Source: a virus
Reading direction: 5' to 3' (one strand)
Length of the DNA stretch: 19,666 bases
Virus genome (UHGV): UHGV-0176920
Shown here: positions 312 to 10,934 of the stretch, piece after piece
Layout: every line of letters begins with the position of its first letter
How positions within the stretch are numbered: the stretch's first letter is position 1
Translations under genes and position numbers: made by a program
The notes under the pieces: generated by a model
What the model saw: the letters and a program-made list of their open reading frames with translations, nothing else
The model's database searches: none
What the model was told of the DNA's origin: nothing

Positions 312-1325
312 TTACTCTACTGTGGACACTGTGTGGACACTCTCGGCTTCAGTACCACCTCTTAGCGGATTAAGAGAAATGGCGTCCTGAAGGTACTCTG
401 GCGCAAAATGAGCGTAAACCATAGTTTGCTCAATCCGCGTGTGACCTAGTATCCGTTGTAGCGTGATAATACTTCCTCCATTAATCATGAAATGAGTGGC
501 AAAGCTGTGCCTTAGTGCATGTGTGGCTTGCCCCGTTGGCAAATCCGGTTTTATTGCTTTCATTGTTCGTCTGAAGCGAGGGTAATCAGCATCAGGGAAT
601 AAAAAACCTCGTTTGTTATCCGCGATCATTTTGGCAACAGCCTCTGAGATCGGGACGGTGCGTGGTTTGTTTGTTTTCGTTTTAACAAACGTGACGCGGT
701 TATGGATGATATTTTCTGCTTTCAAACGAGCTGCTTCTCCCCAACGTGCTCCTGTACTCAGGCAAAGAATCGCAATCTTTTTGTTGTCGCCGTCAAGTGC
801 TGCAAGCAGTAAGGCAATTTCTTCCTGTGTGAGATAGCCTGTTTCTGGTTTTTCCTCCTTAAGCCTCTTTGTCCCTCTGATAGGGTGCTCACCAAAGAAT
901 AACTCCGCTTCAATCAGGGCTGTAAACATGCCGCTAATACATGTTAAATCACGATTGATACTCGAAGGTTTAATACCCTGACTTCTTCGGGTGGCGCAGT
1001 ACTGGCTGATAAGGGATTTCGTGATTTGAAATGCGCATGGGTCATTCGTTATTTTTGTGAAGATTTCAATTTTTCCAAGATTAGATTTCCCATGCTCTTC
1101 GTGTTTACCCTTTAAATCCCACCAGATCTGTGTCAGTTCCGACAGACGTCGTTTGTCTGTTGGTTTTGATAGCCATTCTTTATTGTGGTGGTTGTACAAC
1201 GTGTATTTTTCGAAAGCGACAGCTTCGCTTTTCTTATCAAACTTCCTACGGATGCGTTTTCCGTTACGTCCAGTAGGGCGGATGTCCACTTCATATCGAC
1301 CATCATCGAGTTTTTTGATTGCCAT
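312..1325 (-). CDS. int: Tyrosine integrase (P2 Int-like), 337 aa
   Basis: 337-aa ORF with a C-terminal tyrosine-recombinase catalytic region (…HALRHSFATHF…LGHTRIEQTMVYAHF…). N-terminus MAIKKLDDGRYEVDIRPTGRNGKR matches P2 Int as I recall it. GGAGG lies 8 nt upstream of the ATG on the minus strand. Confidence 0.95.
   Translation of the reverse strand: MAIKKLDDGRYEVDIRPTGRNGKRIRRKFDKKSEAVAFEKYTLYNHHNKEWLSKPTDKRRLSELTQIWWDLKGKHEEHGKSNLGKIEIFTKITNDPCAFQITKSLISQYCATRRSQGIKPSSINRDLTCISGMFTALIEAELFFGEHPIRGTKRLKEEKPETGYLTQEEIALLLAALDGDNKKIAILCLSTGARWGEAARLKAENIIHNRVTFVKTKTNKPRTVPISEAVAKMIADNKRGFLFPDADYPRFRRTMKAIKPDLPTGQATHALRHSFATHFMINGGSIITLQRILGHTRIEQTMVYAHFAPEYLQDAISLNPLRGGTEAESVHTVSTVE
321..341. 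promoter_or_regulatory. Tandem direct repeat TGTGGACACT x2 (11-bp period), candidate Int arm-type binding sites
   Basis: tgtggacactg tgtggacact read directly, overlapping the last codons of int. I recall the P2 Int arm-site consensus as TGTGGACA; assignment is by recall. Confidence 0.4.
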
Positions 1326-3629: not shown

Positions 3630-3907
3630 GTATTCGTATTGAAATTGGCGAGCGTTATGTCGTCACAAATGACCGTTTTCAGTTCATTTTGCAGGAGAGA
3701 AAGACCGCTGAAACCGGGAAGAATGCCGGTAAAGAGTGGCTGGATGTTGTCGGCTATTACCCCAAATTAAACCAGCTCGTTTCCGGTCTGATCCATCACG
3801 ATATTTTGAGCGGTAACGCTGTCTCTTTTGAGGCGCTGAGCTCTCAGGTTGAGCAGCTCGGTCAGCAGTGTCTGACTGCGTTTCTCTGTGCGGGGAAATC
3901 TAAATGA
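3626..3907 (+). CDS. Hypothetical early protein (P2 orf83 position), 93 aa
   Basis: ORF start overlaps the orf82 stop; its stop overlaps ATG 3904 of the next gene (ATGA). Confidence 0.65.
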   Translation: MSIRIEIGERYVVTNDRFQFILQERKTAETGKNAGKEWLDVVGYYPKLNQLVSGLIHHDILSGNAVSFEALSSQVEQLGQQCLTAFLCAGKSK

Positions 3908-4912
3908 TAGTTGATACCCGCTGCCGAGCTGAAAGCTCTATCAATATTATTTCTGTTTCTGGCGGAAAGGATAGCCTTGCTCAATGGCTTGTTGGTATTG
4001 AAAGCGGTGTGCATTTTTTTGCCGGTTTTTGCAGACACCGGGCATGAGCATCCGCAGACAATGGAGTATCTCGATTATCTGGAGAACCGACTCGGGCCGG
4101 TTAAACGGGTTAAAGCTGACTTCTCCCGACAGATTGAAGGTAAGCGCAAGTTTATTGCTGAGAAATGGCCTGTTTCTCTGGTTGAAGAGTGCGGAATGTC
4201 TCCGGGGGAAGCGGCAGAGCGCATCAATTGTGCGCTGGAAATTCTCAAGCCTACTGGTATCCCATTTCTTGATTTGTGCATGTGGAAAGGGCGATTTCCT
4301 TCCACTAAAGCCAGATTTTGCACTTTTGACCTTAAACATGAGCCAGTACGTACTCAGGTCGTGTTACCTGCGCTTAATGAGTTTGATGAGGTAATTAGCT
4401 GGCAGGGGATTCGCGCTCAGGAGTCTCCTGCGCGCGCGGGTCTGCCTGCCTGGGAAGAGGATGCGGACAATACGCCCGGGCTCCATGTATACCGTCCTAT
4501 TCTGAACTGGACGCATGAGGAGGTATTTGCATTTGCAAGACGTCATGGAATTAAACCTAATCCGTTATACCAGCAGGGATGCAGTCGTGTCGGTTGTATG
4601 CCCTGCATCCACGCCAGAAAGTCTGAATTAGCTGAAATTTTTAGTCGCTGGCCGGAAGAGGTTAAGCGTGTTGCGGAATGGGAGCGACTTGTCGCCGCAT
4701 GCTCCAGACGCGGAAATTCTACTTTCTTCCCGTCAACTCATGACCCGCGTCGTGCGGAACGCCGCATTGATATTATTACTGTCGATGCTTACGGAATTGA
4801 GTCTTATCGTGACTGGGCGATGACCACGCGTGGCGGGGCACAGTTTGATTTGCTGGCTTCGGTGAATGATAAGTCAGTTTGCAGTAGTGTCTATGCCGGT
4901 GTATGTGAATGA
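3904..4912 (+). CDS. PAPS reductase / PP-loop ATP-pyrophosphatase family protein (DndC-like), apparently frameshifted near 4014-4030
   Basis: Frame starting at ATG 3904 encodes MIVDTRCRAESSINIISVSGGKDSLAQWLVGIESGVHFF with the PP-loop SGGKDS at 3958-3975, then stops at TGA 4045-4047. The +1 frame (ORF-track 3911..4912) carries the rest of the fold: FADTGHEHPQT, WQGIRAQES..R, LNWTHEEVF, GCSRVGCMPC. Stop overlaps the A start (ATGA). Confidence 0.7.
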
Positions 4913-7194
4913 GTCATTCTTTCCAGGAGCAATACACCTGCGTACCTCCGTCAGCATTTGCTGCAGGCACCGGTAAGGCGTTTACCGGTGCTTATGCATG
5001 GAACGCGCCACGCGAGGCCGTCGGGCGCGAAAGACCCCTTACACGTGACGAGATGCGTCAGGTGCAAGGTGTTTTATCCACGATTAACCGCCTGCCTTAC
5101 TTTTTGCGCTCGCTGTTTACTTCACGCTATGACTACATCCGGCGCAATAAAAGCCCGGTGCACGGGTTTTATTTCCTCACATCTACTTTTCAGCGTCGTT
5201 TATGGCCGCGCATTGAGCGCGTGAATCAGCGCCATGAAATGAACACCGACGCGTCGTTGCTATTTCTGGCAGAGCGTGACCACTATGCGCGCCTGCCTGG
5301 AATGAATGACAAGGAGCTGAAAAAGTTTGCCGCCCGTATCTCATCGCAGCTTTTCATGATGTATGAGGAACTCTGCGATGCATGGGTTGATGCACATGGC
5401 GAAAAAGAATCGCTGTTTACGGATGAGGCGCAGACTCACCTGTATGGTCATGTTGCTGGCGCTGCACGTGCTTTCAATATTTCCCCGCTCTACTGGAAAA
5501 AATACCGTAAAGGACAGATAACCACGAGGCAGGCATATTCTGCCATTGCCCGTCTGTTTAACGATGAGTGGTGGACTCATCAGCTTAAAGGCCAGCGTAT
5601 GCGCTGGCATGAGGCGTTACTGATTGCTGTCGGGGAGGTCAATAAAGACCGTTCTCCTTATGCCAGTAAACATGCCATTCGTGATGTGCGTGCGCGCCGC
5701 CAGGCAAATCTGGAGTTTCTTAAATCGTGTGACCTTGAAAACAGGGAAACCGGCGAACGCATCGACCTTATCAGTAAGGTGATGGGCAGTATTTCTAATC
5801 CTGAAATTCGCCGGATGGAGCTGATGAACACCATTGCCGGTATTGAGCGTTACGCCGCCGCAGAGGGTGATGTGGGGATGTTTATCACGCTGACCGCGCC
5901 GTCAAAGTATCACCCGACACGTCAGGTCGGAAAAGGCGAAAGTAAAACCGTTCAGCTTAATCACGGCTGGAACGATGAGGCATTTAATCCAAAGGATGCG
6001 CAGCGTTATCTCTGCCGTATCTGGAGCCTGATGCGCACGGCATTCAAGGATAATGATTTACAGGTCTACGGTTTGCGAGTCGTCGAGCCACACCACGACG
6101 GAACGCCGCACTGGCATATGATGCTTTTTTGTAATCCACGCCAGCGTAACCAGATTATTGAAATCATGCGTCGCTACGCGCTCAAAGAGGATGGCGACGA
6201 AAGAGGAGCTGCGCGAAACCGTTTTCAGGCAAAACACCTTAACCGGGGCGGTGCTGCAGGGTATATCGCGAAATACATCTCAAAAAACATCGATGGCTAT
6301 GCACTGGATGGTCAGCTCGATAACGATACCGGCAGGCCGCTGAAAGACACTGCCGCGGCTGTTACCGCATGGGCGTCAACGTGGCGCATTCCGCAATTTA
6401 AAACGGTTGGCCTGCCGACAATGGGGGCTTACCGTGAACTACGCAAATTGCCTCGCGGCGTCAGCATTGCTGATGAGTTTGACGAGCGCGTCGAGGCTGC
6501 ACGCGCCGCTGCAGACAGTGGTGATTTTGCGTTGTATATCAGCGCGCAGGGCGGGGCAAATGTCCCGCGCGATTGTCAGACTGTCAGGGTCGCCCGTAGC
6601 CCGTCGGATGACGTTAACGAGTACGAGGAAGAAGTCGAGAGAGTGGTCGGCATTTACGCGCCGCATCTCGGCGCGCGTCATATTCATATCACCAGAACGA
6701 CGGACTGGCGCATTGTTCCGAAAGTGCCGGTCGTTGAGCCTTTGACTTTAAAAAGCGGCATCGCCGCGCCTCGGAGTCCTGTCAATAACTGTGGAAAGCT
6801 CACCGGTGGTGATACTTCGTTACCGGCTCCCACACCTTCTGAGCACGCCGCAGCAGTGCTTAATCTGGTAGATGACGGTGTTATCGAATGGAATGACCCG
6901 GAGGTCGTGAGGGCGCTCAGAGGTGCATTAAAACACGGCCTGAGAAGACCAAACCGTCAGCAAAGAAACGGAAGCCCGTTAAAACCGCATGAAATAGCGC
7001 CATCGGCCAGACTGACCCGGTCTGAACGATTGCAAATCACCCGTATCCGCGTTGACCTTGCTCAGAACGGTATCAGGCCGCAGCGATGGGAGCTTGAGGC
7101 GCTGGCGCGTGGCGCGACCGTAAATTATGACGGGAAAAAATTCACGTATCCGGTCGCTGATGAGTGGTCGGGATTCTGGCATCAATTTGAGTAA
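4909..7194 (+). CDS. A: Replication initiation protein A (rolling-circle nickase, P2 A-like), 761 aa
   Basis: 761-aa ORF of P2 A length at the P2 A position; contains a paired-tyrosine-type segment (…GYIAKYISKNIDGY…) and HxH-like segment (…DGTPHWHMMLF…) typical of rolling-circle initiators. Confidence 0.95.
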   Translation: MSHSFQEQYTCVPPSAFAAGTGKAFTGAYAWNAPREAVGRERPLTRDEMRQVQGVLSTINRLPYFLRSLFTSRYDYIRRNKSPVHGFYFLTSTFQRRLWPRIERVNQRHEMNTDASLLFLAERDHYARLPGMNDKELKKFAARISSQLFMMYEELCDAWVDAHGEKESLFTDEAQTHLYGHVAGAARAFNISPLYWKKYRKGQITTRQAYSAIARLFNDEWWTHQLKGQRMRWHEALLIAVGEVNKDRSPYASKHAIRDVRARRQANLEFLKSCDLENRETGERIDLISKVMGSISNPEIRRMELMNTIAGIERYAAAEGDVGMFITLTAPSKYHPTRQVGKGESKTVQLNHGWNDEAFNPKDAQRYLCRIWSLMRTAFKDNDLQVYGLRVVEPHHDGTPHWHMMLFCNPRQRNQIIEIMRRYALKEDGDERGAARNRFQAKHLNRGGAAGYIAKYISKNIDGYALDGQLDNDTGRPLKDTAAAVTAWASTWRIPQFKTVGLPTMGAYRELRKLPRGVSIADEFDERVEAARAAADSGDFALYISAQGGANVPRDCQTVRVARSPSDDVNEYEEEVERVVGIYAPHLGARHIHITRTTDWRIVPKVPVVEPLTLKSGIAAPRSPVNNCGKLTGGDTSLPAPTPSEHAAAVLNLVDDGVIEWNDPEVVRALRGALKHGLRRPNRQQRNGSPLKPHEIAPSARLTRSERLQITRIRVDLAQNGIRPQRWELEALARGATVNYDGKKFTYPVADEWSGFWHQFE

Positions 7195-7320
7195 GGATCT
7201 CATCTATACAGTATAAGTAGTTTTGACTGTAATTGATTGTTTTTTATATGGTTGCATGCATTAAATCTACGTCAATATCATTATGTTATAATGCATTACT
7301 TAAAAATGTTGGAGATAAAA

Positions 7321-7512
7321 ATGTTAAAGCCTGCAGATGTTGTTTGTTTGAAAAGCGGTGGATTTAAAATGACTGTATCTGACTCTACTGAAACTCATGC
7401 TAAATGTATTTGGCATGATAAAGAAGGAGTTTTGCACGAGGAGTCATTCTCCATTGATTTACTGGAAATAGCAGAGAGTAAAAGTGGTATGCTTTGTCGT
7501 CCACGTAAGTGA
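7321..7512 (+). CDS. Small DUF2158 (YodC-like) family protein, 63 aa (P2 orf91 position)
   Basis: ATG 7321 preceded by GGAG (7311-7314), inside ORF-track ORF 7237..7512 which begins with TTG. Motif LKSGGFKMTV resembles the DUF2158 signature as I recall it. AT-rich. Confidence 0.55.
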   Translation: MLKPADVVCLKSGGFKMTVSDSTETHAKCIWHDKEGVLHEESFSIDLLEIAESKSGMLCRPRK

Positions 7513-7539
7513 ATCATAATAAAATTCACGGGGGAAAGT

Positions 7540-8220
7540 ATGAAACAATACAGCGAATTAGAAAACAATGTTAAGAGATTCATTGTTGAGCATGAAAAAG
7601 GGATTTCTATTGATGATATTCATCATAAGTTCCGGATGAAGGATGGTCAGAATCGCAAGATGGCAGATTATCTTATTGATAATAAAAAGATAATTTTGGA
7701 GATGAAAAGTCTTTTTTCTGACAGGGTCAAGAATGTCAATGATAAACTGAATGAGTTGGTTAAAACTGATAGTTGGCTTGCAAAAAACTGGCATGGTGCT
7801 ATTCATTTAGAAGAGTTGATAAAAAGACACCCAGACTCAAAGCGATTTAGAAATGATATAATGAACTTTGCTTATGAAAATATTAAAACAAAGATAGTTA
7901 AGGAAGCTAATAAGCAAATAAATGCAACAAAGGATGTTTTGGATTTAAATGACTCGATTGGCGGGTTGATTTTGTTAAATGATAATGTCTTTTCACATGA
8001 GTCTAATTATTTGTCAGATGAAATATTATATTTGCTAGGCACAAAGAGATATTCGAGTGTTGAGTTTGTGGTTTATATTGCAAAATTGATTGATAAACAG
8101 GTTGATGTTTGTGTGCTACTTGACAGTCAATCTAAAAATAAAAATTATATTGAATGGTATATGAATAATGTTTTTTTATTGAACTGGGCGTCTTTTAATA
8201 AATATGCAATAAAGATGTAG
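7540..8220 (+). CDS. Hypothetical protein, 226 aa, cargo gene at the P2 tin position; function unknown
   Basis: Clean ORF with GGGGGAAAG-type RBS before ATG 7540, 27 nt downstream of the small ORF (likely co-transcribed). Strongly AT-rich, Lys/Asn-rich protein with no Walker or catalytic signature I can recognise. Confidence 0.7.
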   Translation: MKQYSELENNVKRFIVEHEKGISIDDIHHKFRMKDGQNRKMADYLIDNKKIILEMKSLFSDRVKNVNDKLNELVKTDSWLAKNWHGAIHLEELIKRHPDSKRFRNDIMNFAYENIKTKIVKEANKQINATKDVLDLNDSIGGLILLNDNVFSHESNYLSDEILYLLGTKRYSSVEFVVYIAKLIDKQVDVCVLLDSQSKNKNYIEWYMNNVFLLNWASFNKYAIKM

Positions 8221-8539
8221 TGGTGTGGATGGATATGAAATGAGTCAACCAAGATGCACCTTGGTCAGTAATCTCATGTGAGATACCACATATAACACCA
8301 AAAGTGTCAGGTTGATGGCCATTGTTCACCGTTTACAGCAGATTATGGTCAACGAAAATCTGACGCCTGACGAGCTGGTCGGGTGTGCCGAAATAGTCTG
8401 GGATAATTACGGGCGGTTTAACTATATCGGTCAGTCCAGAGTTGCGCCACCACCACGCAGACGATAGAGAACGCCGCCAGTCGTGAAACTTGTTTTCAGG
8501 CTGGCGGAGTTGAACAACGAGCGAAGTGAGGCGTTAGCA

Positions 8540-9481
8540 TTAAGTTAATTTTAATGAATGGTACTCTATCGAGCTGATTGTAGATGCGATATATTTACGA
8601 TCATTTACAGAGAGTATTGCCGCTAGTAGACGACATACCAGAGCCTGCATTTGTAGCAATATATCGCTACCATATTGACAATCATTGATACTAGAGAAAC
8701 CAAGCGGTTGCCCATTAAAAATGGCTTCATGAAAATTATCATTGCGTATAACTGAAACATTACATTCATCTGTTGCCCATGACGGGATTTTTACACCGTA
8801 ATTTTCGCACATCCAATATACTCTATTTTGATGAGATGGTTTTTTCTCTTTAATGACTTTATCCCTTTCATCCCATGCTATAGCAAAACAGCAATCAAGA
8901 GCCATATAAAGATACTGGAATTTCTCAAAGGAAAGGTATAGTGGGTTATGTGACAGGAATAGGGAGTGTATCACCGCAGCTATTCTTTTAATGGAGCGAT
9001 CATCTTTTTGTTTGTCTTTTATATAGTTAAGTGCTAGCTCTATTACTTCTTTTTCAGAGCATCCAACGAGAATAAAGTCGGTTAACTTAGTGGGCTTGAT
9101 AGTGGTTGCATCAAGAAAACCAGCGTCAGTGGTTGTCAATCTTATACCCTTGAAAAAAGAGAGGCACCACACAACAAAGTTGAGAGTTTCTAACGAGGAT
9201 GTGTTTTTTAATTTTAGTGTGTGCGTTTTGGGCATGCCGAATACTCGGTAACTATAAGGCATTGTGCATGTGTCACCATTAAGGTTATATACCTTTCGAT
9301 TCCCAGGGTATATCCAACCATTAACAACGTTTTTATCATTGTTAATACGTTCCACGTTCTCAATAAGACCGGGTAAAGTACGCAAAGAAAATTGTTCAGT
9401 CTCAATGTTAACTTCTACTGGATAGTATCCAAACTCCGAAATAATCTCATTTGGTTGCTGTTCGTCAACTTCACCTTGCAT
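8540..9481 (-). CDS. Hypothetical protein, 313 aa, cargo gene adjacent to cos; function unknown
   Basis: Minus-strand ORF with GGAG 7 nt upstream of ATG 9481, convergent with the 226-aa gene. AT-rich. Contains one R-N-D-N-F-H string (codons at 8729-8746), a weak Rx4H match to a HEPN-type motif. Confidence 0.7.
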   Translation of the reverse strand: MQGEVDEQQPNEIISEFGYYPVEVNIETEQFSLRTLPGLIENVERINNDKNVVNGWIYPGNRKVYNLNGDTCTMPYSYRVFGMPKTHTLKLKNTSSLETLNFVVWCLSFFKGIRLTTTDAGFLDATTIKPTKLTDFILVGCSEKEVIELALNYIKDKQKDDRSIKRIAAVIHSLFLSHNPLYLSFEKFQYLYMALDCCFAIAWDERDKVIKEKKPSHQNRVYWMCENYGVKIPSWATDECNVSVIRNDNFHEAIFNGQPLGFSSINDCQYGSDILLQMQALVCRLLAAILSVNDRKYIASTISSIEYHSLKLT

Positions 9482-9719
9482 AACTTTCTCCGTTCAAAAA
9501 CAGGCACGATAATTCTCGTAAGCCTATCATGTTCGCAAAGTATCCATACCTGTGGATTTTGTAAATTTAAGTTGATTTGTCATTAAATAAGCCGTTGCAT
9601 GCAACAAGTGAATGTTTTTGCATGCGTCGGGGATGTCCGTTCAGGCTGCGTGCGGTCAGGACTGGTGCGGATCCATAGTATCTATGCAACTGCATTAAAA
9701 CCGCCCCATGAAGCGGGCG

Positions 9720-9738
9720 GGCGAGGCGGGGAAAGCAC
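9720..9738. other. cos site candidate (P2-type 19-nt cohesive end sequence)
   Basis: ggcgaggcggggaaagcac read directly; it matches the P2/P4 cohesive-end sequence as I recall it and sits where cos is expected, between the tin/old-equivalent locus and Q. Confidence 0.5.
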
Positions 9739-9872
9739 TGCGCGCTGGCGGTGGTGCTGATTTTATTTTTTCAGCGTCTCAGCGCGTCGTGATGGCATTT
9801 AGTCGGCCTGCTGGGGCGTTGGTGTGTCTGCGGGGTGTTTTGTGCGGTGGTGAGGGCGTGATGACGGGATGT

Positions 9873-9894
9873 AAAAAAGCCGCCCGCAGGCGGC
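9873..9894 (-). terminator. Rho-independent terminator candidate downstream of Q (minus strand)
   Basis: Plus strand aaaaaa-GCCGCC-cgca-GGCGGC; on the minus strand this is a GC stem-loop followed by TTTTTT, starting 6 nt after the Q stop. Confidence 0.5.
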
Positions 9895-9899
9895 GATGT

Positions 9900-10934
9900 T
9901 CAGCCGTTGTCAGTGTCAAGTGAGTAGTTTTTAAAGCGGATGACCTCCTGACCGAGCCAGTCGTTTATCTCGCGGATCCTGTCCTGTAACGGGATAAGCT
10001 CATTGCGGACAAAGACCTTTGCCACTTTCTCAATATCACCCAGCGACCCGACGTTCTCCGGCTTGCCACCCATCAACTGAAAGGGGATGCGGTGCGCGTC
10101 CAGCAGGTCAGCGGCGCTGGCTTTTTTGATATTAAAAAAATCGTCCTTCGTCGCCACTTCACTGAGGGGGATAATTTTAATGCCGTCGGCTTTCCCCTGT
10201 GGGGCATAGAGAAACAGATTTTTAAAGTTATTGCGGCCTTTCGACTTCACCATGTTTTCGCGAAGCATTTCGATATCGTTGCGATCCTGCACGGCATCGG
10301 TGACGTACATGATGTATCCAGCATGTGCGCCATTTTCGTAATACTTGCGGCGGAACAGCGTGGCCGACTCATTCAGCCAGGCAGAGTTAAGGGCGCTGAG
10401 ATATTCCGGCAGGCCGTACAGCTCCTGATTAATATCCGGCTCCAGCAGGTGAAACACGGAGCCGGACGCGAAGGCTGTCGGCTCGTTGAAGGACGGCACC
10501 CACCAGTAAACATCCTCCTCCACGCCACGGCGGGTATATTTTGCCGGTGAGGTTTCCAGCCTGATAACCTTACCGGTGGTGCTGTAACGCTTTTCCAGAA
10601 ACGCATTACCGAACACCAGAAAATCCAGCACAAAGCGGCTGAAATCCTGCTGGGAAAGCCACGGGTGCGGAATAAACGTTGAAGCCAGAATATTACGTTT
10701 GACGTAAATCGGTGAGCTGTGATGTACGGCAGCACGCAGGCTTTTTGCCAGACCGGTAAAGCTGACCGGTGGCTCATACCATCTGCCGTTACTGATGCAC
10801 TCGACGTAATCCAGAATGTCACGGCGGTCGAGTACCGGCACCGGCTCACCAAAGGTGAATGCCTCCATTTTCGGGGCGCTGGCGGTCATTGTTTTCACCG
10901 CAGGTTGCGGTGTTTTCCCTTTTTTCTTGCTCAT
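9900..10934 (-). CDS. Q: Portal protein (P2 gpQ-like), 344 aa
   Basis: 344-aa ORF (P2 Q length) starting MSKKKGKTPQPAVKTMTASAPKMEAFTFGEP, directly downstream of and start-overlapping the terminase gene on the minus strand. Confidence 0.95.
   Translation of the reverse strand: MSKKKGKTPQPAVKTMTASAPKMEAFTFGEPVPVLDRRDILDYVECISNGRWYEPPVSFTGLAKSLRAAVHHSSPIYVKRNILASTFIPHPWLSQQDFSRFVLDFLVFGNAFLEKRYSTTGKVIRLETSPAKYTRRGVEEDVYWWVPSFNEPTAFASGSVFHLLEPDINQELYGLPEYLSALNSAWLNESATLFRRKYYENGAHAGYIMYVTDAVQDRNDIEMLRENMVKSKGRNNFKNLFLYAPQGKADGIKIIPLSEVATKDDFFNIKKASAADLLDAHRIPFQLMGGKPENVGSLGDIEKVAKVFVRNELIPLQDRIREINDWLGQEVIRFKNYSLDTDNG

Follow-up and report, generated by a model that had tools for sequence, protein, structure and literature searches.

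The Old protein of phage P2 is an OLD-family ATPase-TOPRIM nuclease, and P2 Tin is reported to target the single-stranded DNA-binding protein of T-even phages. Their genes lie between gpA and gpQ, an interval described as a hotspot of variation and of anti-phage defense in P2-like phages (PMC9122126; also PMC13586616); both are accessory, and exclusion of other phages has been reported for them (PMC9122126). The gene pair analyzed here shares this hotspot with old and tin and has no sequence or domain relationship to either; unlike Old and Tin, its products are predicted to combine a PD-(D/E)xK-like core with an SH3-like partner. The two-gene unit as such is already catalogued and is not new. 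Exactly this pair is listed by Rousset et al. (2022) as P2-hotspot system #63, with the Pfam entry DUF2158 and 67 occurrences (Table S5B), and the accessions of its proteins are contained in the locus table S5A; the pair is absent from Tables S2A and S2B of cloned and tested systems (PMC9122126). An earlier deposit, P2-EC67 (AM157369.1), carries the same three ORFs as ORF73, ORF226, and ORF313. Compared with these two records, the small protein is identical, ORF226 differs by one or two residues, and the gpA-gpQ locus is the same. Both are catalogue entries in which no function, fold, or test is reported, and no mention of the protein accessions was found in the literature searched. The present analysis contributes the nuclease signature, a predicted barrel for ORF63, the limits of the module, a corrected and conserved promoter candidate, and the homologues that occur solo in nature.

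The window, that is, the whole stretch of 19,666 nucleotides analyzed (UHGV virus genome UHGV-0176920), was identified as a P2-like prophage from its genes for integrase (312-1325, minus strand), a C-type repressor, Cox, the replication endonuclease gpA (4909-7194, plus strand; Pfam Phage_GPA, E = 4e-124; RefSeq "replication endonuclease"), and the portal protein gpQ (9900-10934, minus strand; Pfam Phage_portal; RefSeq "phage portal protein"), and from the terminase and capsid genes that, with a scaffold gene, come after the portal gene. Positions 7100-9700 are 100% identical to the chromosome of Escherichia coli strain 4/0, in which a P2-like prophage adjoins yegR/yegS. The gpA and portal genes form the left and right flanks of the variable hotspot, and the interval between them (31-41% GC, compared with 51-59% in gpA) holds three substantial ORFs, designated ORF63, ORF226, and ORF313. 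In a comparison with phages Wphi and P2, the backbone homology stopped at 7177, within the last codons of gpA, and restarted at 8280. These results indicate that the pair ORF63/ORF226 is a discrete, AT-rich cargo module (7178-8279, 31-37% GC). Within the gpA-gpQ hotspot, it takes the first variable slot in place of orf91/orf92 of P2/Wphi, the slot being filled by orf91 (DUF3850/ASCH) and orf92 in Wphi and by an orf91-type gene in P2. Like hotspot cargo in general, the pair thus lies between gpA and gpQ in a segment that is variable among similar phages. This context, which had not been recognized in the initial annotation, explains most of the finding.

The module is separated from the next variable slot by a conserved P2 backbone segment of 258 bp (8280-8537), with 90-91% identity to Wphi and P2 and 98.7% identity to Yersinia phage VB-YPM-4; this segment may be a candidate recombination anchor for module swapping. 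For the 51-aa ORF at 8312-8467, the RefSeq name "meiotically up-regulated 80 protein" is spurious. The second, independent slot contains ORF313 (8540-9481, minus strand), a separate cargo module outside the pair. ORF313 was found at 98.7% identity in the Yersinia pestis phage VB-YPM-4, where orf91-type genes are present and the pair is missing; conversely, the pair was found without ORF313 in a Citrobacter sequence with another downstream gene (L008) and in a metagenomic P2-like sequence with no downstream gene (L009). These results indicate that ORF313 does not belong to the pair. It matched nothing in Pfam, PADLOC, NCBIfam, or the PDB, and its sole family was PHROG 5937, whose function is unknown. 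On the other side of gpA, between it and an orf83-like gene, lies a gene with a PAPS-reductase domain (3904-4912, plus strand; Pfam, E = 1e-31), at a position that is vacant in Wphi and P2. In the window, this region consists of a 47-aa ORF starting with ATG (3904-4047) that overlaps a 333-aa ORF starting with TTG (3911-4912), and in RefSeq the gene of strain 4/0, whose identity with the window was compared over 7100-9700, is a frameshifted pseudogene.

We next consider the structure of the gene pair. The initial annotation had described two same-strand ORFs with a 27-nt gap and a Shine-Dalgarno sequence each, and its coordinates were correct. ORF63 (7321-7512, plus strand) starts with ATG and encodes 63 aa followed by a stop codon, and its Shine-Dalgarno sequence, GGAG, is located at 7311-7314. 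ORF226 (7540-8220, plus strand) also starts with ATG and encodes 226 aa followed by a stop codon; it is separated from ORF63 by positions 7513-7539 and preceded by GGGGGA at 7530-7535, and a ribosome-binding site for ORF226 is annotated in the P2-EC67 record. The Shine-Dalgarno sequence of the small gene was kept as GTTGGAGA in four of five aligned sequences and was GCTGGATA in the contig L011. The assignment of the small protein to DUF2158 (PF09926) was likewise confirmed, with a Pfam score of 33.1 bits against a gathering threshold of 22.3 (E = 4.7e-8) over residues 6-46. Compared with homologues at 64-78% identity, dN/dS values were 0.19-0.33 for the small gene and 0.06-0.22 for ORF226. These low values reflect purifying selection and indicate that both ORFs are real genes.

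As for the promoter, the element proposed in the initial annotation, TTGACT (7223-7228)-16 nt-TATATG (7245-7250), is present on the plus strand and scored 9 of 12. Its occurrence was not above chance, since 14 sites of this 9/12 type were found in the region against 9.2 ± 2.9 expected, and TTGACT was absent from the corresponding upstream sequences of L008, L009, and L011. This element is probably not a functional promoter. The alignment of the upstream regions of relatives instead revealed a conserved extended -10 element, TGTTATAAT (TGnTATAAT), at 7284-7292 on the plus strand; its counterparts read TGATATAAT, TGATATACT, and CGTTATAAT in relatives with modules of ~76% nucleotide identity. Judged from this conservation, it is likely the promoter of the module, with a transcription start predicted near 7299. 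The Citrobacter sequence L008 and the metagenomic P2-like sequences L009 and L010 match the window in gene order, short gap, and upstream region at ~76% nucleotide identity, and a sequence scan detected no terminator-like site between ORF63 and ORF226. The proposal that the pair is an operon was thus supported as far as its arrangement is concerned, and the shared transcript itself is an inference from that arrangement. Downstream of ORF226, neither a terminator nor an RNA antitoxin was found, folding was no better than that of shuffled sequences (z = 0.19), and a search of 6900-9900 against Rfam gave no RNA family beyond a chance snoRNA match.

ORF226 matched no Pfam, NCBIfam, or PADLOC family, and nothing was obtained from PADLOC-DB v2.0.0 at E ≤ 1 for ORF63, ORF226, or ORF313. 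The close relatives of ORF226 are few (26 clusters at ≥64% identity), and those with a named source all derive from Enterobacterales. An exhaustive HMMER search yielded 182 representatives at E < 1e-3, nearly all of which were unannotated metagenomic proteins; a scan of GTDB representative genomes gave no relative, and tblastn against PLSDB plasmids gave no match for either ORF63 or ORF226. When 47 relatives at 21-41% identity were aligned, D43, E54, K56, and Q126 were invariant, and D25, A42, P98, A123, and N147 were conserved in at least 90%. The pattern D43-x10-E54-x-K56 was also invariant among 13 close relatives. The local consensus, [KR]-A-D-Y-h-h...R-x-h-I-x-E-x-K-x-L, corresponds to the classic PD-(D/E)xK signature, in which a conserved acidic residue precedes (D/E)xK. 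The codons of the putative catalytic hairpin are located at 7666-7707 on the plus strand (D43, 7666-7668; E54, 7699-7701; K56, 7705-7707; invariant columns of alignments A2 and A3). The statement that neither protein shows a recognizable motif was thus wrong for ORF226, which has the invariant D-x10-E-x-K and Q126. By contrast, the suspicion that an Rx4H string near the N terminus is due to chance proved sound: R13 is replaced by K in most close homologues and H18 by N or L in two. A reading of ORF226 as a HEPN RNase was rejected because these residues of Rx4-6H are not conserved.

The initial annotation had called for structure prediction and a Foldseek search of ORF226. In the AlphaFold2 model (pLDDT 81, pTM 0.78), D43 starts the strand 44-46, and E54 and K56 are located in the strand 51-57, so that the motif sits on a predicted β-hairpin; a long helical insertion (58-134) follows the ExK strand, and then come more strands and helices. 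Foldseek comparison of the model with the PDB returned nothing significant, and Rossmann-like proteins received scores similar to those of PD-(D/E)xK members. Among curated models, only sub-threshold Pfam DpnII-MboI matches were found, in 5 of the 47 relatives (one scoring 17.7 bits, where the cut-off is 27); in P0027, the sole relative checked in this respect, the match overlies the motif region. We regard the assignment of ORF226 as a putative PD-(D/E)xK nuclease as probable. Its identity to PD-(D/E)xK nucleases of known systems, such as type II/IIS enzymes (e.g., BsmI), NucC of CBASS and type III CRISPR, and CdiA-CT EC869, is 8-18%. Unlike these systems, ORF226 has no cognate methyltransferase and no cyclic-nucleotide signaling partner, and its ExK strand is separated from the following core strand by the helical insertion 58-134. 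With regard to type II restriction-modification, no methyltransferase domain was found in the module, gpA, the 51-aa ORF, or ORF313.

Relatives of 560-740 aa begin with a degenerate Mrr_cat/NA-iREase1-like domain, whose ExK has A for E, and carry the ORF226-like domain C-terminal to it. This position of the ORF226-like domain fits an effector role. Fusions of Mrr_cat/NA-iREase1-like and ORF226-like domains were observed in the metagenomic proteins P0043, P0044, P0059, P0087, and P0142, some of them with a terminal SEC-C zinc motif, and constitute an undescribed multi-domain architecture. The Mrr_cat matches were dropped as evidence for the fold of ORF226, since they lie in the N-terminal domain (3-118) and not in the ORF226-like domain (~340-520). 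The weak PADLOC matches to PDC-S12, E2, and cyclase families that were traced, in the long relatives P0087, P0104, and P0109, were irrelevant, as they lie outside the ORF226-like domain and mostly in a C-terminal SEC-C zinc motif.

ORF63 is predicted to form an SH3/KOW-like five-stranded β-barrel, a feature that is new in the present analysis, and no antitoxin DNA-binding domain was recognizable in it. When the PDB was searched by sequence, with ORF63 by itself or with two profiles of the ORF226 family as queries, only spurious coiled-coil or SepF matches were returned.

The inheritance of the two genes was compared among relatives. All 27 complete E. coli genomes that matched the query 7200-8300 did so over its full length, and the same eight IMG/VR contigs carry both ORF63 and ORF226. 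Their products show parallel divergence (identities of 73-76% for ORF63 and 75-83% for ORF226), and the two genes were found together in every P2-like instance. Outside this group, ORF226 homologues occur alone. On Pantoea IncFII-type plasmids, a 240-aa homologue with 64% identity is encoded, the stretch homologous to the window is exactly the coding sequence of ORF226, and the region upstream contains no DUF2158 ORF. Other solo homologues were detected in the metagenomic contigs L012 (64% identity) and L040 (67% identity). In L011, the DUF2158 gene (540-770) has decayed into a pseudogene that is interrupted by two in-frame stops beyond codon 39 and leaves recognizable remnants downstream, a result that rests on a single Logan contig, in which an assembly error is possible; the adjacent nuclease gene, which encodes 229 aa, has stayed intact and is under selection. 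D43, E54, K56, and Q126 are kept in all of the solo proteins. These results suggest that ORF63 is an optional partner that belongs to the P2-like clade only and not an obligatory antitoxin. The initial annotation had noted that a small gene followed by a larger one is a layout common to toxin-antitoxin and sensor-effector pairs. The toxin-antitoxin side of that suggestion, at least in its strict form, is weakened by ORF226-type genes, which lack any DUF2158 neighbor in three settings that are independent of one another and have a decayed one in a fourth. The pair may be a sensor or adaptor with its effector. In the Pantoea ananatis plasmid contigs (L004-L007, ~4963-8200), the solo homologue lies between a PLDc_2 nuclease gene near the IncFII repA and the relaxase region, and in L005-L007 it is followed by a Macro-domain gene. 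The 240-aa protein also has a 14-aa C-terminal extension that is absent from the P2-type proteins.

Furthermore, the neighborhoods of distant ORF226 relatives were inspected, and five of the six examined were mobile-element or conflict settings. One relative lies in a HigB/HTH toxin-antitoxin cluster, one adjoins an integrase gene, and one shares a prophage island with genes for Mrr_cat, RNase_T, and GmrSD. In L019 (5749-6540), the relative adjoins an OLD-TOPRIM/AAA_15 gene and has a small DUF2188 gene (80 aa) 10 nt upstream; in L020 (4659-5999), it adjoins BREX brxC and an integrase gene and has an unannotated 104-aa gene 27 nt upstream. The sixth neighborhood was ordinary chromosomal and speaks against a defense role. 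A small gene followed by an ORF226-like nuclease gene may thus be a recurring layout, with small genes of different families in L019 and L020.

The explanation that we consider best, with a probability of about one half, is that the pair is an accessory cassette, expressed in the lysogen, that joins a PD-(D/E)xK-type nuclease with an SH3/KOW-like protein and most likely serves phage exclusion. Such a cassette would be exchanged horizontally within the gpA-gpQ (tin/old) hotspot of the P2-like prophage and would form a single operon driven by its own extended -10 element at 7284-7292, probably active in the lysogen, as are old and tin of P2. ORF226 would be a Mg2+-dependent nuclease with D43, E54, and K56 as catalytic residues, aided by D25, Q126, and N147, and may cut the DNA of the infecting phage or, as a form of abortive infection, that of the host. 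The ORF63 barrel, as an optional partner, may restrain the nuclease, target it, or couple it to an infection cue. Set against a defense role in general is a machine-learning antiviral signal that was present in only 15-32% of unknown-function P2 proteins (PMC13586616).

A more specific version, which we consider conceivable and rather doubtful, is that the pair represents a new two-component anti-phage system, in which a separate DUF2158 protein of the SH3/KOW-like type would gate or target a nuclease of an undescribed PD-(D/E)xK clade. The DUF2158 protein would, for example, sense a phage protein or nucleic acid and then release or recruit the nuclease. This version would fit the other layouts of a small gene and an ORF226-like gene, namely, DUF2188 in Roseateles and the 104-aa protein beside BREX, and, if true, would provide the first function for the widespread DUF2158/YodC family.

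Alternatively, ORF63 and ORF226 could be two neighboring accessory genes without a defense role, serving, for example, phage DNA metabolism or counter-defense and standing together only through a shared cassette. The P2 hotspot does carry non-defense cargo such as partition systems and a cytolethal distending toxin, which also counts against a defense reading of the pair (PMC9122126). The lack of any match to known-defense HMMs, the travel of ORF226 without ORF63, and the place of the Pantoea plasmid homologue in a replication-to-relaxase region beside PLD-nuclease and Macro-domain genes are consistent with this alternative. However, the tight, conserved, operon-like linkage and parallel divergence in P2-like phages and the repeated proximity of distant relatives to defense genes argue against it, as does the outcome for P4 hotspot loci of unknown function, where six of eight randomly chosen and tested loci gave defense (PMC13586616). 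We consider it unlikely.

Less probable still is a classical type II toxin-antitoxin addiction pair, in which ORF226 is a toxic nuclease and ORF63 a labile antitoxin and autorepressor, and which would stabilize the prophage instead of sensing phages. Like type II toxin-antitoxin systems with nuclease toxins, the pair resembles an operon in which a small gene lies 27 nt upstream of a larger, co-oriented one that is nuclease-like, a conserved promoter region serves both, and the gap contains no terminator-like site; the two proteins co-diverge, and some distant ORF226 relatives are found among toxin-antitoxin genes. Unlike in such systems, the "toxin" is kept without its "antitoxin," with D43, E54, K56, and Q126 intact on the Pantoea IncFII-type plasmids and in L012 and L040, and in L011 the small gene is broken after codon 39 beside an intact and selected nuclease gene. 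In addition, neither protein matched a Pfam or NCBIfam toxin-antitoxin family, and ORF63 has a predicted KOW/SH3-like barrel and not an antitoxin-type DNA-binding fold.

Modification-dependent, type IV-like restriction, in which ORF226 would cleave modified phage DNA and the barrel would aid recognition of DNA or the modified base with no need for a methyltransferase, is similarly improbable: a nuclease signature in a module without a methyltransferase, the viability of the solo nuclease, as expected if unmodified host DNA is spared, and the ASCH/DUF3850 protein that otherwise holds the same slot agree with it, but its basis is the absence of a methylase and a generic fold resemblance, there is no similarity to known type IV enzymes, the Mrr_cat matches of the long relatives lie in a different domain, and no modified-base reader domain (SRA, YTH, or EVE) was detected.

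As it stands, the pair is catalogued hotspot cargo of a familiar, nuclease-based type and a fairly ordinary defense candidate. Its natural variants, with both genes in P2-like phages, the nuclease gene by itself on Pantoea plasmids, and a decayed partner in one contig, offer a ready test of whether ORF63 is a regulator, a specificity factor, or a dispensable partner. If the lysogen-expressed cassette protects against phages, it would add one more nuclease-based system to the arsenal of the P2 hotspot and give the first functional clue to the DUF2158 small proteins, a family that includes YodC of E. coli.
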